Below are positions 598 to 10,632 of a stretch of 64,000 nt of DNA, piece after piece. Both the position numbers and the translations under genes were made by a program. Below the pieces are notes generated by a model, which saw nothing but the letters and a program-made list of their open reading frames with translations, was not told the DNA's origin and did not search any database. The stretch's first letter is position 1. Every line of letters begins with the position of its first letter. Location of the stretch: the IMG/VR virus record IMGVR_UViG_3300023174_000110, positions 1-64,000 of that record; one strand, written 5' to 3'. Source of the DNA: a virus.

Positions 598-606
598 AAT
601 TATGTT

Positions 607-792
607 TTAATTAACCGCAGGTAATTGTTGTGTTAACTTTCTTTTAGCTAGTGCTCTAGAAATTTTAGCTGCGTGTTTTTTACGAGCAGATTCTAAAAGC
701 TTTTCTAGTTGAGCAACATTTAACGGACCTAATTTTGGTTTTCCGTTTTTCGTTAACATGGGATTTTTGTTTTTAGATTTCAAAGTTGCCAT
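607..792 (-). CDS. small basic hypothetical protein
   Basis: 61-aa Lys-rich ORF with AAGGA upstream. Confidence 0.65.
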   Translation of the reverse strand: MATLKSKNKNPMLTKNGKPKLGPLNVAQLEKLLESARKKHAAKISRALAKRKLTQQLPAVN

Positions 793-810
793 AATATAGT
801 CCTTAGAATT

Positions 811-880
811 TGGAGCGGTGGTCTAGATTCGCACTAGATGAGTAGATTGGACACCTACTCTGGTTCTATACCCCGACCGC
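811..880 (-). ncRNA. non-canonical tRNA-Gly(TCC)-like RNA
   Basis: GCGGTCG...CCACCGC-T-CCA acceptor stem, 3-bp mini D arm, 7-bp anticodon stem with TGTCCAA loop, 5-bp T stem TCTAG/CTAGA with TGCGAAT loop. Confidence 0.75.
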
Positions 881-889
881 ATATGTAAT

Positions 890-918
890 ACTATAACATT
901 ATATAGGGTGCTTGTCAA
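890..918 (-). promoter_or_regulatory. sigma70-type promoter driving the tRNA-like RNA and tRNA cluster
   Basis: TTGACA-17 nt-TATAGT with TG extension. Confidence 0.75.
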
Positions 919-1438
919 TGTTTATTTGTGGTATATTTTTCCAAGCAATAGGTTCTGGTTTTAGTATATCATCCGGATTCCGGACATCCGAAAACACTTC
1001 CCATAACTTTTCTTTAATTGCAAATTTGGTAAACAAACCTGTTGATAAACCATATGCTTCTATTTCCCATGGTTCATCGTAATAATCCATATTTTCAGTA
1101 TTGATTCTTTGGCCTCTCCAACGAGTACCATATTCATTGGTTTCACCATAAACATATTGTTTGATGTGAACCATTTCATGAGCCAAAGTTTCTAAAATAT
1201 CGTGTGATCCAATTAATGGATTTATCTCTATCTCAAACTCTCTTGGTTTATTGCTCTCATTATAATCAATAACTCCAGCATATCCCAAAGCATCCAATTT
1301 AGAATCAAATTTAATGCGAACAAATATATTGTCCAACATCTTAGGTGTCATCAATTTTTCAGCATAAAAGATAGCCGCACGTTTCACAAAAGGTCGGAAA
1401 CGTTTTTTATCGGGACAACCAACTATACTTAATTGCAT
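899..1438 (-). CDS. zinc metallopeptidase-like protein (HEXXH)
   Basis: LAHEMVHIKQY plus downstream PWEIEAY third-ligand motif. Confidence 0.75.
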   Translation of the reverse strand: MQLSIVGCPDKKRFRPFVKRAAIFYAEKLMTPKMLDNIFVRIKFDSKLDALGYAGVIDYNESNKPREFEIEINPLIGSHDILETLAHEMVHIKQYVYGETNEYGTRWRGQRINTENMDYYDEPWEIEAYGLSTGLFTKFAIKEKLWEVFSDVRNPDDILKPEPIAWKNIPQINIDKHPI

Positions 1439-2112: not shown

Positions 2113-2189
2113 TGGTGGGCCCACCTGGACTCGAACCAGGGACCAAAGGATTATGAGTCCTCTGCTCTAACCAACTGAGCTATAGGCCC
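2113..2189 (-). tRNA. tRNA with CAT anticodon, probably Ile2 (lysidine, reads AUA); elongator Met not excluded
   Basis: Cloverleaf with paired G1:C72, GGGCCTA acceptor and TGGTTAGAGC D arm similar to bacterial Ile2 tRNAs. Confidence 0.8.
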
Positions 2190-2819: not shown

Positions 2820-2839
2820 AATATAATATTAACATAGAG

Positions 2840-2865
2840 ATAGGGGGTTGTCAAGAACCCCCTAT
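2840..2865 (-). terminator. hairpin after hsp20, overlapping the -35 (TTGACA) of a downstream promoter
   Basis: ATAGGGGGTT / AACCCCCTAT inverted repeat. Confidence 0.55.
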
Positions 2866-5991: not shown

Positions 5992-6652
5992 ATTTAGAAT
6001 GTTTTGATTCTGATGCTACCCAATACTGGATTTCTTGTTTAGTATTTTTAAATGAGGCAAGTCCTTTAAATGAAATTTCTACATCATAAGAACCGGCAAT
6101 CATCTTTAAATTCTGAGTCAAGAATACCATTTTAAAACTTTTTCCGTTACCTACTCCAAGTTCAATTGAGTTGGTGTGAGCAGAATTATCTTCAGCATTA
6201 AATGTTGTTAGATTAATTTTGTCGCCCGAGGTTTCAATAGAAACATGGGGTGTTTGTAATACACTTGCTGTTTTTAAAATAGAATCATAATCTTCCGCAC
6301 TTAAAACAAAAGATGCATCGACACTAGGAAGATTTAATTCTTTTTCAGGTGGAACAACAATTTGAGTTTTTTCAGTTTTACGATATTTAACCTTACTGCG
6401 ACCAGATTTAAAAATCACATCAATATCGTTAAAATCAAGTTCTGTATCCTTATATAGTGAATGTACGGATAAGAATTGATTTAAATCGTAAATACAAAAA
6501 TCTTGAGGGAATTCATCCTTCAATGTAGCTTTGGCAAGCACAGATTTAGTGGCAGCCATTGTAGCCAATTTATTGCCTTTTTTAAATTGAATGCCTTGAT
6601 TGATTGTAGAAAAGTTTTTTAATACAGTTAGTGTTTCATTTGATAGCTTCAT
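5981..6652 (-). CDS. 45: sliding clamp gp45
   Basis: MKLSNETL.VLKNFSTIN, F.IYDLNQFL, Y.V.IS, YWVA. Confidence 0.95.
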   Translation of the reverse strand: MKLSNETLTVLKNFSTINQGIQFKKGNKLATMAATKSVLAKATLKDEFPQDFCIYDLNQFLSVHSLYKDTELDFNDIDVIFKSGRSKVKYRKTEKTQIVVPPEKELNLPSVDASFVLSAEDYDSILKTASVLQTPHVSIETSGDKINLTTFNAEDNSAHTNSIELGVGNGKSFKMVFLTQNLKMIAGSYDVEISFKGLASFKNTKQEIQYWVASESKHSKFGE

Positions 6653-6956
6653 TTACATCTCCATTATTTAAAGAATACATTATATCATGTTCATACAAAA
6701 ACATCAAGCAGCACATAGCATGTGCCAAATGATGTATACCAGATTCAGGATCTAATTGTTCGCCTTCTTTCCAGGCCCAAGTATGCCTTTGCAGTGCATC
6801 AAAATACCTACGCTTTGAATTGGGTACTTTTTTCCAGTTATCTCTGTCATATTTTTGAGCACCAAATGTTAATACTTTTACTACTTCTTTTAATGCTAAT
6901 GGTGGTAATAAACCATATTCTAGTTTGCCACCATCAAATTTACGACCTGCTTCCAT
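6636..6956 (-). CDS. DUF5664 / dATP-dGTP diphosphohydrolase N-terminal-domain protein
   Basis: GRKFDGGK...LLPP...VLTFGAQKY...NW...DPESGIHHLAHA. Confidence 0.8.
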   Translation of the reverse strand: MEAGRKFDGGKLEYGLLPPLALKEVVKVLTFGAQKYDRDNWKKVPNSKRRYFDALQRHTWAWKEGEQLDPESGIHHLAHAMCCLMFLYEHDIMYSLNNGDVNEAIK

Positions 6957-7770: not shown

Positions 7771-7806
7771 AAAAAAAAGGAAAATCGTTTTAACAACGAC
7801 TTTCCC
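7771..7806 (-). terminator. probable intrinsic terminator after wHTH gene
   Basis: Imperfect GGAAAATCGTT/AACGACTTTCC stem followed by an 8-U tract on the minus strand. Confidence 0.55.
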
Positions 7807-7817
7807 GATAAAACAGA

Positions 7818-8090
7818 TTAAGCAGTAAAGCTGTAACCTGCGCTGAGAGCAGCACGAACCATAGATTTGGTTGGTTTGCCCATGCGATATGCTTTAACTT
7901 TGGTACCATCACTACGCTTAACGGTGTTGGTGTAAATGCAATGTCCTTCTTGACGCAATTCGTCAATGCGGGCAGATACGTTTTGAATGCCGAAACGAGC
8001 ACGAGCCTGTGCTGTGGTTAAAGTGTTGTAACCTTCGGATTTGCTTAGGTAATTTACGATCTTTTGTTTAGCGGATAATTGCTTTTTCAT
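7818..8090 (-). CDS. winged helix-turn-helix DNA-binding protein
   Basis: TLTTAQARARFGIQNVSARIDELRQEGHCIYT; start moved to MKKQLS (GGAG upstream). Confidence 0.75.
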   Translation of the reverse strand: MKKQLSAKQKIVNYLSKSEGYNTLTTAQARARFGIQNVSARIDELRQEGHCIYTNTVKRSDGTKVKAYRMGKPTKSMVRAALSAGYSFTA

Positions 8091-8193: not shown

Positions 8194-9519
8194 TTATCTG
8201 CCAACTTGTGGCAAATACTTTGCCTTGGTTTCTTCCCAAGAAAGGTAAATAAGGTCATCATAAAAGAGTGATTCATATGAAACATTATTTTTCTTTTGTA
8301 ATTGCCTAATTCTACCTTTGGCATATTTGGTTTTCCAAATATTTGCCAATGTTTCTTCACTGGTATCAAATGACTTTACCAGAGATTCATCCGTAATTTC
8401 TTTACGGAGAAATTCGTTTGTATTATTATACAGCGGACTAAAATAGATACCACGTTGGTGTTCTGTACGAATTAATTCTTTAGGAATATTAAGTTTTGAA
8501 TAGGCAAAATTCAAAGAACGATTTTTATGATCTCGTTTGAGTGGAAGTCCTTGAGGATTTTTGGCGTCCCACCATTCAAAATATTTTTTGGTGTGGTTCT
8601 TTTTAATCCAGTCAAATACCATTTTTTTAGTTTCTCTAGTTGGTTCAAAAGCAACCGAGCCTGAAGAAAATCCCATTGCCTTCCAATGTTCAAGTCCGTC
8701 ATATTGTGATAATCCACCAGCTTTAGTTTTTCCATAAAGACTAGTTGTGGTAACTCCGACCAAAGTGTCACCATATCTTTCTTTCCAATCTTTTTGAACG
8801 GTATCAGATAGGCACATCAAAGCTAGTAATTTACCACCCATATAATTATAGCCAAGCGGTTGTAATGGAACAATTGTAGAACCAATTGCCGTATGGTTAA
8901 TCATGTTTTGTTTTGTTTTGACATCTCTTGGCCAACCGATTGCATTATCTCTTGGAGTCAAGTCCAGAAAGTCTGACGAGATACAGATGACACCAAGATA
9001 TTTTTTGGTAACTTTATCTTGTAAAATATAATACAGATTACGACCAATGTTACTATTATTTTTCATTGTAGAAGAAAAAGTACGAATGGCATTCCAAGTT
9101 TCAACTCCAGTACCATTGGAAAGAATCATAACGGGTTCTAATTTTTCATAATCATCAGAAGATTCTGGTACCCAAAAGTTTTCTTTAACTTCTTTAATTA
9201 GTTCTTCTTGTTTTTTATCAATTATTTGTATTTCAATACCATCTGACATAGTTGATACTTCATGTACTGGATATCTTTCTTTGATTTCACACCATTTTTG
9301 GTATAATGTATATTCACGAACATCCATATCCGAAGCATATCTTAAATCGGAGATTAAAGTTTCTTTTAAAGTAAGGTCATCAATATGTTCAAAAGATTCT
9401 ATAGGATTTTGTTTTTGCCAAGCTTCCCATTGTTCTTCAGGTGTTCCAATTTCTTTAGTTGAAACAACAACTTCTTCATCACCCCATAATGTACTTATGG
9501 TATCAATCTTTTTTGCCAT
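8194..9519 (-). CDS. DUF4338 / DruA-like (Mom-related GNAT-like) protein
   Basis: GRNL..., LGVICISSD, RD..IGW, P.GYNYMGGKLLA, TTTSLYG, SQY, W..MG.SSG pattern. Confidence 0.7.
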   Translation of the reverse strand: MAKKIDTISTLWGDEEVVVSTKEIGTPEEQWEAWQKQNPIESFEHIDDLTLKETLISDLRYASDMDVREYTLYQKWCEIKERYPVHEVSTMSDGIEIQIIDKKQEELIKEVKENFWVPESSDDYEKLEPVMILSNGTGVETWNAIRTFSSTMKNNSNIGRNLYYILQDKVTKKYLGVICISSDFLDLTPRDNAIGWPRDVKTKQNMINHTAIGSTIVPLQPLGYNYMGGKLLALMCLSDTVQKDWKERYGDTLVGVTTTSLYGKTKAGGLSQYDGLEHWKAMGFSSGSVAFEPTRETKKMVFDWIKKNHTKKYFEWWDAKNPQGLPLKRDHKNRSLNFAYSKLNIPKELIRTEHQRGIYFSPLYNNTNEFLRKEITDESLVKSFDTSEETLANIWKTKYAKGRIRQLQKKNNVSYESLFYDDLIYLSWEETKAKYLPQVGR

Positions 9520-10091
9520 TATTTAAGTTTTAATTTCTTCATTAATTTATTTCGTTTTTGCATTCCAGATTGCAATGCCATTGGTTTAGTTTTACTAGTA
9601 TAAACTATTCCATTCATGTGGTCAAGCTCATGTTGAAAACAACGAGCAGATATGCCAGAAAAGGTGGCACCTTTCCATTCTCCATTAAAATCTTGGTATC
9701 GAACTCCTATTTCAGCCGGTCTGGTAATTCTTAAACCTAATAAAGGAAAAGAAAGGCATCCTTCTATCATATGGCTTTCTTCTTTTGAAGAATTAATTAT
9801 TTCTGGATTAAAAAATGCCACGTAATCATCATCGGTACCCATAACAAATACTCGATACCTAAAACCACATTGGTTTGCTGATAAACCATAACCACGATTG
9901 TGTTTGCATGTTTCAACAAGGGTGGATGCAAATAAGCTAGGATTAACTGGTGGATTGTTAAAATTAAATTCTGGCATTACCTCATTTAAAATAGGATCTG
10001 TTTCTGCCACCAATTTAAAAATATTAATTTGTTTTTTAGGTTCAGAAACTTTTACTGCATCTTCTGTGTTAAATGTGATTATATCACTCAT
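9519..10091 (-). CDS. def: peptide deformylase
   Basis: GYGLSANQ, EGCLS and QHELDH motifs. Confidence 0.95.
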   Translation of the reverse strand: MSDIITFNTEDAVKVSEPKKQINIFKLVAETDPILNEVMPEFNFNNPPVNPSLFASTLVETCKHNRGYGLSANQCGFRYRVFVMGTDDDYVAFFNPEIINSSKEESHMIEGCLSFPLLGLRITRPAEIGVRYQDFNGEWKGATFSGISARCFQHELDHMNGIVYTSKTKPMALQSGMQKRNKLMKKLKLK

Positions 10092-10632
10092 TTATTTTCT
10101 CCTGTAATTCATCAAATATTCCCATGGACAATTCAAATCCGAGCAAAGCTTCTTCAACTAACTCTGTGGATAATTTAGCATCTAATGCTTTGATTAATGC
10201 GGGCCTATCTTCAAACTGATATGCTTTGCCAGAACCAGGTACTCTTTTTGCAATAATCTTTCCGCCATATAAATCGCCCATGTGTCTAACATAGACATGT
10301 GCCAACAAAAGGTGTCTTTTTTCTGGTGTGTAAAACAATTCTTCTATGTGTTTACGGTACTTTTGTGTGCTTTCGTATTTGTTGGTTGGATAACCAGAAT
10401 GTAATTCAGACAAATCCTGTAGAATATAATTAGACCTTTTTATGTCCGGTAAATCTTGAATTAAACCAGCCAATTCTGCATAATATTCCAAAATAGCATA
10501 AACAGGAAACATCTGTTGTAGATACATTACATAATGTGTTTCTGTAATTGTTCCACCAAGAAGATATTGAACGAAAGGTTTAGATTCCGCTTCTCGATGT
10601 TTTGCATTAGTATATTCTCTCAACACACTCAT
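10084..10632 (-). CDS. heme oxygenase
   Basis: LREYT..KH..AE, LLAHVYVRHMGDLYGG. Confidence 0.88.
   Translation of the reverse strand: MSVLREYTNAKHREAESKPFVQYLLGGTITETHYVMYLQQMFPVYAILEYYAELAGLIQDLPDIKRSNYILQDLSELHSGYPTNKYESTQKYRKHIEELFYTPEKRHLLLAHVYVRHMGDLYGGKIIAKRVPGSGKAYQFEDRPALIKALDAKLSTELVEEALLGFELSMGIFDELQEKINE

Follow-up and report, generated by a model that had tools for sequence, protein, structure and literature searches.

A compact tRNA-Gly-like RNA linked to a DUF4338/DruA-family gene in SAR11-type T4-like phages, and its candidate role as a glycyl donor outside translation

In this work, we describe a 70-nt tRNA-Gly-like RNA encoded at positions 880..811, on the minus strand, of a 64,000-nucleotide stretch of viral DNA (the window), which makes up the first 64 kb of the 91.5-kb contig of IMG/VR record IMGVR_UViG_3300023174_000110 (35.7% G+C, estimated to be 55% complete). 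Combining its fold, the covariation of its helices, its invariant identity nucleotides, the coexistence of relatives with a canonical tRNA-Gly and their linkage to a GNAT-fold gene across rearranged genomes, all of which we observe directly, we propose with middling confidence that this compact RNA is a dedicated glycyl donor for a GNAT enzyme of the DUF4338/DruA family, rather than a tRNA for translation. New here are the direct adjacency of RNA and enzyme gene in diverged lineages, the occurrence of the RNA as a stand-alone unit, a tree of the gene arrangements and formal counts for two classes of such RNAs.

Folded on its own, the RNA, which we assign to class cA, adopts a cloverleaf as its minimum-free-energy structure (−25.6 kcal/mol, z = −3.46 against shuffled sequences). 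The acceptor stem pairs 880-876 and 874-873 with 821-815, leaving C875 bulged; the D arm (872-862, followed by A861) has a 3-bp stem, GGU/ACC, and a 5-nt loop, AUAGA, without GG; the 7-bp anticodon stem (860-854 with 846-840) closes the loop UGUCCAA (853-847), which provides G33, U34, C35, C36 and A37; the variable region is a single nucleotide, A839; and the T arm (838-822) consists of 5 bp and the loop UGCGAAU (833-827), giving G53-U-G-C in place of GTTC, and G55. The discriminator, U73, lies at 814 and is followed by an encoded CCA at 813-811, all on the minus strand. An earlier, sequence-only reading, whose quoted sequence is the reverse complement of window positions 811-880, had described a tRNA-Gly-like RNA with a 3-bp D stem lacking GG, a 7-bp anticodon stem, G33, a 1-nt variable region and no GTTC, and each of these features is indeed present.

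The molecule has the general architecture of a tRNA: it is built of four arms, with 7 bp in the acceptor stem and 5 bp and a 7-nt loop in the T arm, and it ends in a discriminator and a 3′ CCA. Where an elongator would have U33 and a purine at 37 on a 5-bp stem, it has G33 on a 7-bp stem and keeps only A37; where G18G19 would pair with psi55 and C56, it has the D loop AUAGA and the T loop UGCGAAU. In bacterial mode ARAGORN makes no call on it, and Rfam gives no match at the gathering score (RF00005, 29 bits), nor at E ≤ 10 on window 600-1000, in keeping with the low tRNA-finder score that the sequence-only reading had expected. The permissive mitochondrial mode of ARAGORN does call the RNA as Gly(tcc), which we do not count as evidence because that mode makes 25 calls in 91 kb.

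To place the RNA among its relatives, we fetched several hundred related viral loci through the SprT-like gene upstream of it and through two DNA patterns, one of them independent of the anticodon, and searched with a covariance model built from 21 distinct sequences. This yielded 46 compact relatives (45 distinct) of 65-70 nt. The search pattern partly fixed the T loop and the 3′ end, and the anticodon loop was left free in the second pattern. Standard pairs fill 97.9% of the 979 pair cells, and 18 of the 22 pairs show double-sided changes, with such pairs in every one of the four helices and in all 7 positions of the anticodon stem. The covariation score is 0.599 against 0.208 for shuffles (none of 500 reaches 0.599) and at most 0.118 for slid partners, a margin that is very large even though the alignment was fitted to the covariance model, which favours structure. 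Selection rather than decay, as the sequence-only reading had argued from the intact stems, is thus borne out by compensatory changes in homologues. These figures are not what a decaying tRNA pseudogene would leave, and we regard such an origin, or a role as a mere RNase P/Z processing signal at the head of an operon, as very improbable. The relatives also revise one detail: a C6-C67 mismatch and a linker nucleotide G8 had been assumed, but 21 of the 45 distinct relatives have no nucleotide 6, and the partners of nucleotides 7 and 8 are 61 and 60, so that C6 is better read as a bulge and the D stem as following the acceptor stem directly, with no linker.

The identity set by which an E. coli-type glycyl-tRNA synthetase (GlyRS) recognizes its substrates comprises G1-C72, C2-G71, G3-C70, U73, C35 and C36. 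Every one of these nucleotides is present in the window RNA, as the sequence-only reading had noted, and, together with the CCA, every one is invariant in the 45 distinct relatives while the stems vary; the UGC of the T loop is invariant as well, in a loop that the search pattern partly fixed. The conserved features are thus exactly those that bacterial GlyRS is established to read and, judged from the sequences, charging is predicted: because every determinant is kept, we propose that a host alpha2-beta2 GlyRS would glycylate the compact RNA. What has been lost or become variable are features of decoding, namely U33, the purine at 37 in the second class described below, the G18G19/psi55 elbow and the 5-bp anticodon stem. 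The loop UGUCCAA, with G33, occurs in 33 of the 45 distinct relatives and differs from the UUUCCAA of a neighbouring canonical phage tRNA-Gly only in having G instead of U at 33. At 50-64 and 51-63 of the T stem, U-A and A-U pairs prevail; they are not discriminating for EF-Tu binding since the canonical neighbour has identical pairs.

This canonical neighbour, a 74-nt tRNA-Gly(UCC), accompanies the compact gene in about 30 related loci, L038, L071 and L042 among them, where it lies nearby or, often, immediately downstream. As in L038:3881-3954, it shares with the compact RNA the G1-C2-G3 start, the C-G-C-U-CCA end and an anticodon loop that is identical except at position 33. It differs in its length, in having a D-loop GG, the T loop GTTCGAT, U33, a 5-bp anticodon stem and a variable loop of 4-5 nt, and in being called by both ARAGORN and Rfam. 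Sequence comparison suggests that it is the likely parent of the compact RNA, through tandem duplication followed by a change of function, and the window RNA would accordingly be a miniaturized derivative of a tRNA-Gly(UCC) of the phage's own, expressed from its own promoter. With a normal tRNA-Gly(UCC) alongside, the compact RNA is not just the Gly decoder of these phages.

The related loci also contain a second compact tRNA-Gly-like class, cB, of 67-68 nt (for example, L027:2722-2788, L002:1709-1776 and L187:4377-4444). In cB, the stems measure 6 bp (acceptor), 3 bp (D), 7 bp (anticodon) and 4 bp (T), and the T loop reads WGCAWAG. Its anticodon loop, A-N-N-C-C-C-U, has a pyrimidine at 37 and variable positions 33 and 34, and it retains the same GlyRS identity set as cA. 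Counted on a plain, unfitted MAFFT alignment, all 580 pair cells of cB (100%) are paired, and 10 of its 20 pairs have changed on both sides. Behind the SprT-like gene, at the site that cA occupies in the window, the closest relatives (proteins 93-94% identical) have cB instead, and L058 and L066 contain both classes.

These loops and neighbours bear on whether the compact RNA could be an unusual decoder of GGA and GGG, kept because changes in its anticodon loop, elbow and T loop let it resist a host defence which cleaves or modifies tRNAs and so disables the normal tRNA-Gly. Phage tRNAs that evade anticodon nucleases by loop changes are known, and the 3-bp D stem and 7-bp anticodon stem together come close to the normal helix length (4 + 5 bp plus position 26). 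The window RNA lies inside a tRNA cluster, neither a canonical tRNA-Gly nor any other Gly tRNA was found in the examined part of the 91.5-kb contig, and some compact relatives carry canonical anticodon loops, AUUCCAU and CUUCCAG. Yet U33 and a purine at 37 are near-universal in elongator tRNAs, whereas most distinct cA sequences have G33 and cB has a pyrimidine at 37; the canonical tRNA-Gly(UCC) is at hand in so many of the loci; and decoding would leave unexplained why the RNA adjoins a GNAT gene in contigs that have no other tRNA. We consider a decoding role unlikely.

Upstream of the RNA, a sigma-70-like promoter is predicted at 890..918 on the minus strand, with TTGACA at 918-913, a 17-nt spacer and TATAGT at 895-890. 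By consensus it matches at 11 of 12 positions, has TG before the −10 element and ends 9 nt before G1, overlapping the end of the SprT-like gene, and it is conserved in relatives of both gene arrangements. The sequence-only reading, which had placed the RNA first behind a strong promoter, is upheld in this respect. Directly downstream lies a Lys-rich open reading frame of 61 aa (607..792, minus strand; Shine-Dalgarno AAGGA at 804-800), which finds no match in Pfam or PHROG and has homologues adjoining compact RNAs in L157 and L103. It probably shares a transcript with the compact RNA, followed by tRNA-Thr, tRNA-Asn and tRNA-Met. A first place in a transcript that runs on into a reading frame and tRNAs is what a processing signal would have; such a signal needs neither invariant C35 and C36 nor U73, and would not be expected as the stand-alone unit that some related loci contain.

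The link between the RNA and an enzyme is informed by gene order. Among 74 compact elements in loci that were found through the RNA alone, 28, distributed over 18 contigs, follow a DruA-like gene in the same orientation at a distance of 28-140 nt, the orthologues beside them showing 61-77% identity; by comparison, of 79 Gly tRNAs that are of canonical length and share this T loop and 3′ end, not one is placed in this way. The RNAs behind the DruA-like gene often form a tandem pair, cB-like and then cA-like, and each has a predicted promoter of its own between the gene and G1. In two loci, L098 and L126, the RNA immediately precedes a terminator hairpin, making a stand-alone promoter-RNA-terminator unit, and on G019 (70 kb) and G027 (60 kb) compact RNAs stand behind the DruA-like gene with no further tRNA found by ARAGORN. 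In a tree of the DruA-like proteins, the arrangement of the window, with the RNA about 7 kb downstream in a tRNA cluster, forms one clade (100/100 support) nested among deep lineages, at least two in number, in which RNA and gene are adjacent. The pairing of RNA and enzyme has thus survived at least one relocation and a protein divergence to about 56% identity.

Of 12 large contigs with a DruA-like gene that were checked, 9 have a compact RNA. Contig G034 ends 5 kb after the DruA-like gene, before the expected site of the RNA. Model R1 gives cB no more than 19-29 bits, so that the lack of a hit on G001, G003 and G040 does not amount to absence; a pattern search recovered cB in G001 and G036, and nothing in G003, G034 and G040. 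The DruA-like gene itself is present in all 25 large contigs of the clade and in none of 16 unrelated phages, a co-occurrence that we rejected as independent evidence, as it is a clade effect, relying on adjacency and rearrangement instead.

In the window, the proposed partner is a 441-aa protein encoded at 8194..9519 on the minus strand, 7.3 kb upstream of the RNA and in the same orientation. It matches Pfam family PF14236 (DUF4338) with 69.4 bits (cut-off 27; E = 3.7e-19) over residues 154-372, and its homologues number 895 cluster representatives at E ≤ 0.001. An AlphaFold2 model, based on an alignment of 46 homologues, has a predicted local distance difference test (pLDDT) score of 91.6 and places a GNAT-fold core at residues ~122-385, in agreement with the description of DUF4338 as a GNAT domain (PMC10853773). 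Foldseek finds nothing in the PDB at E ≤ 0.001 with this model, only weak GNAT matches. VIA-align ranks the Mom protein of phage Mu first (8bv8_B; Z 9.8, root-mean-square deviation 3.5, 165 residues), followed by SpeG and other acetyltransferases (Z 9.4-8.5).

Mom provides a functional precedent. This phage GNAT (PDB 8bv8) moves glycine from Gly-tRNAGly to N6 of adenine in DNA (PMC13219725), a use of Gly-tRNAGly outside the ribosome such as we propose for the pair in the window. It draws on all three isoacceptors of the host, with no tRNA supplied by the phage (PMC13219725), and the window protein is about 200 residues longer, with extra N- and C-terminal domains. Mom's GNAT fold has the catalytic residues R111, S124, D149 and R151 and an insertion resembling a helix-turn-helix. 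The window protein is a GNAT of the DUF4338 family and, by Pfam profile and hhalign, not of the Mom family, resembling Mom only at the level of the GNAT fold.

A precedent for the RNA is found in the non-proteogenic (NP) tRNAGly of staphylococci, whose T loop contains UGC or UGU and whose binding to EF-Tu and the ribosome is poor (PMC7826273). NP1-NP3 of S. aureus and S. epidermidis are the glycyl donors for FmhB, FemA and FemB (PMC7826273); like the compact RNA, they combine a Gly identity and a UCC anticodon with UGC (or UGU) for UUC and coexist with a proteogenic tRNA-Gly, and they are dedicated to non-ribosomal aminoacyl transfer by a GNAT-related transferase, a role that we propose for the compact RNA alike. 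Unlike it, they are cellular, full-size and confined to staphylococci, with Fem partners that act on peptidoglycan precursors, whereas the compact RNA is phage-encoded and 65-70 nt long, with no acceptor-D linker, a 3-bp D stem, a 7-bp anticodon stem, a 1-nt variable region, G33 and a DUF4338 protein as its candidate partner. Weak EF-Tu and ribosome binding was measured for the staphylococcal NP tRNAs; for the compact RNA it would be expected by comparison. The UGC of the T loop is shared with the NP tRNAs, and the same variant also occurs in phage tRNAs of other isotypes; membership of the NP lineage itself we rejected, as the RNA is encoded by a phage, has the phage's own tRNA-Gly(UCC) as its nearest relative and a DUF4338 protein as its candidate partner.

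We likewise rejected the GUGC T loop as a hallmark of glycine, as it occurs in Met, Cys, Thr, Ile, Lys and other phage tRNAs. Among 519 distinct ARAGORN tRNAs of the fetched loci, G53-U-G-C replaces GTTC in many isotypes from uncultured phages, for example in 8 of 65 Met, 4 of 18 Cys and 4 of 57 Thr tRNAs, and by this count the G55 elbow variant is common across phage tRNAs generally.

In overall shape, the compact RNA also recalls tRNAPyl and tRNAs of the bovine mitochondrial tRNASer(UCN) type, with which it has in common a short D loop without G18G19, the lack of T-psi-C and an extended anticodon stem; in all of them the variable loop is short and the connector between acceptor and D stems shortened. 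Those tRNAs decode and have U33, and their anticodon stem is 6 bp long, their variable loop 3 nt and their connector 1 nt. The compact RNA takes these features further, to 7 bp, 1 nt and 0 nt, respectively, and has G33.

Taken together, these comparisons suggest a path from gene to acceptor of which each step is proposed. Once transcribed, the RNA would be processed by tRNA processing enzymes much as a tRNA, given that G1 lies a few nucleotides past the start site and that CCA is encoded. After charging by GlyRS, its loop and core (G33, no elbow pairs, the 7-bp anticodon and 3-bp D stems and the 1-nt variable region) would keep it off EF-Tu and the ribosome, so that it could serve as a private pool of activated glycine for the DUF4338/DruA GNAT enzyme, which would pass the glycyl group to an acceptor; by analogy with Mu Mom, phage DNA is one candidate. 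The sequence-only reading had offered three roles, a non-ribosomal glycine donor, a decoy and a GlyRS sponge. We favour the first because the RNA stands directly behind a GNAT-fold gene in 18 diverged contigs, with Mom as the precedent (PMC13219725), and do not favour the other two. More tentatively, and with the balance tipping somewhat against it, cA and cB could be glycyl carriers reserved for an aminoacyl transferase of the DUF4338/DruA family and make up with it a new two-part system of tRNA-dependent modification, perhaps of DNA, in the abundant T4-like phages that infect SAR11 and LD12; by extension, DruA of the Druantia defence system would then likewise depend on aminoacyl-tRNA.

The same linkage would also arise if the RNA worked with the DruA-like GNAT in some other way, as a Gly-RNA substrate whose amino group is N-acylated from acyl-CoA (as the TacT/AtaT toxins do with Gly-tRNA), as a scaffold or specificity subunit, or as a regulator. 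The protein family keeps a glycine-rich loop (Q220...G228-G229-K230) where acyl-CoA GNATs bind pyrophosphate, its structural neighbours are mostly acetyl-CoA enzymes, and GNAT toxins that acetylate Gly-tRNAGly are cited in PMC13219725. None of the features observed calls for a scaffold, and retention of a strict GlyRS identity set and of CCA is most simply understood as a need for the glycyl ester, so that we see these alternatives as improbable, about on a par with decoding. Somewhat less probable still is a decoy or sponge, that is, a presumably highly expressed mimic of tRNA-Gly that binds a TacT/AtaT2-type toxin, a tRNA-sensing defence or GlyRS and passes its glycine to nothing. A strong predicted promoter of its own in both gene arrangements fits such a role, as does the retention of the acceptor-end features that these proteins read; a decoy for readers of the acceptor end needs no invariant C35 and C36, and the linkage to the phage's own GNAT gene would go unexplained.

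Several observations weigh against a dedicated glycyl donor for the DUF4338/DruA enzyme. The canonical loops of some relatives mean that the compact body itself may suit decoding. In the window, RNA and enzyme gene are separated by several kilobases. Contigs G003 (65 kb) and G040 (89 kb) have clusters of 12-16 tRNA genes and no compact RNA or Gly tRNA in the part examined, and are possible exceptions to the pairing unless the gene lies off the contig. The carriers all come from a single broad, pelagimyophage-like group, so that the linkage is not independent across clades; the DruA-like gene is missing from unrelated phages that have a GUGC tRNA-Gly, and in cyanophages that encode distant DruA-like proteins the tRNA-Gly is either canonical or absent. 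On the side of the protein, the structural rank of Mom is, in this model, a tie with ordinary acetyl-CoA GNATs (9.8 against 9.4). Membership of the Mom family was rejected, with hhalign against Mu Mom giving a probability of 1% and no similarity, and with PF25680 (27.1 bits) silent in this genome, 13 related contigs, Mosig and HTVC008M, while scoring 253 bits on Mu Mom and 112.6 bits on cyanophage S-SSM7. Finally, the DruA-like family keeps the Q-x-x-G...GGK motif, its position read from the alignment, where many GNATs bind CoA, and the enzyme may therefore use acyl-CoA.

By protein similarity, the closest cultured relatives of the source phage are the marine Pelagibacter phages Mosig EXVC030M and HTVC008M (Kyanoviridae), and the phage is a freshwater relative of the SAR11 (Pelagibacter) T4-like phages. 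The sequencing runs that contain window DNA are freshwater and lake metagenomes, and freshwater pelagimyophages have been assigned to Ca. Fonsibacter (PMC7029224). Both cultured phages encode a DruA-like protein 56-57% identical to that of the window and, downstream of its gene on the same strand (6.5 kb in Mosig, 3.9 kb in HTVC008M), an aberrant 74-nt tRNA-Gly(ACC) with the same acceptor end and C35/C36 as the compact RNA, no D-loop GG and non-canonical T loops (GGCAGUA and AGCGUUA). Unlike cA, these tRNAs are of full length and have U33, A37 and A34. The Mosig gene (L326, MT647606.1 7779-7852, minus strand) is unannotated and overlaps a 'hypothetical protein' coding sequence at 7774-7869; that of HTVC008M (L328) lies at KC465899.1 91140-91213, in a phage listed with 0 tRNAs (PMC7029224).

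Neither the 70-nt cA nor a 67-nt cB had a match at E ≤ 1 in a blastn search of 50,697 phage records, which is too insensitive for such short queries; a covariance-model search of chosen records did retrieve the pelagiphage relatives. Scanning one genome for each of 185,579 bacterial and archaeal species with the cA pattern gave 33 matches, all of them chance hits and none a compact tRNA. In RNA libraries, two contigs from metatranscriptome assemblies of different studies, one of 2,900 nt in X16 and one of 205 nt in X17, cover exactly positions 810/811-882 at 93-94% identity; they show only that relatives of the element are present in these libraries, not transcription, ends or level, and the uncovered flanks in these assemblies carry no meaning. 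In the literature, we found no paper on this compact RNA or on a tRNA link for DUF4338.

The window protein matches the same Pfam family as DruA of type I Druantia (DUF4338, PF14236). Whereas DruA is a component of a bacterial defence system, the window protein is the product of a phage gene without DruB-E partners. We found no paper describing the activity of DruA; DruA-like proteins in Synechococcus phages have been noted by structure in the Phold preprint (10.1101/2025.08.05.668817). Relatives of the window phage also encode another DUF4338 paralogue (about 370 aa; examples are G005:C1:21814-22233 and G019:C1:40164-40577), which shows 34-39% identity across residues 140-279 and is located on the far side of the tRNA cluster; it was not seen in the examined part of this genome. 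This paralogue resembles cyanophage proteins, of which that of S-SCSM2R is annotated as 'methylcarbamoylase mom'. Cyanophage S-SSM7 (L330, NC_015287.1) has a genuine Mom gene (216832-217392) together with a distant DUF4338 protein and a canonical tRNA-Gly(UCC).

Around the DruA-like gene, the window encodes a peptide deformylase, a helix-turn-helix (HTH) protein, a MazG-like dNTP pyrophosphohydrolase domain, a sliding clamp and a clamp loader, a setting of DNA metabolism and early genes that is compatible with DNA as the acceptor and proves nothing. On the minus strand, 6636-6956, 9519-10091 and 10084-10632 encode a dATP/dGTP diphosphohydrolase N-terminal domain (E = 1e-36), the peptide deformylase and a heme oxygenase, respectively. 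The gene order deformylase-DUF4338-MazG is common to the window and phage Mosig.

Near the RNA, the SprT-like gene directly upstream (899..1438, minus strand) encodes a 179-aa HExxH protein that matches phrog_10499 and has a sub-threshold match to SprT-like in Pfam; related loci were fetched with this gene as the anchor, and we claim no functional link. Downstream, the minus strand encodes a canonical tRNA-Thr(UGU) at 522-597, tRNA-Asn(GUU) at 443-518 and tRNA-Met(CAU) at 343-417, each with an encoded CCA. A second gene with a CAU anticodon lies at 2113-2189 (minus strand), and one of the two may be a lysidine-read tRNA-Ile2; lysidine synthetase genes have been reported in some pelagimyophages (PMC7029224). 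At 2840-2865, a perfect 10-bp G+C-rich inverted repeat, ATAGGGGGTT..AACCCCCTAT, forms a terminator-like hairpin on both strands, and its loop holds the −35 element, TTGACA, of a promoter-like site at 2854..2826.

Aminoacyl-tRNAs serve outside translation as donors for Fem transferases, the L/F-transferase and MprF, and the carrier in such reactions is as a rule a tRNA of the host or a cellular paralogue of full size; in 2026 Mom joined this list of users. Here, a virus seems to have built a minimal carrier of its own, from which what the ribosome needs has been stripped and what the synthetase needs has been kept. Standard tRNA finders miss this whole class of phage tRNA-like genes, as when HTVC008M was published without a tRNA. 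If the proposal is true, it would define roughly how little of a tRNA GlyRS requires in nature, would give a function to DUF4338/DruA, a widespread domain, and would point to an unrecognized modification in some of the most abundant phages of lakes and oceans.

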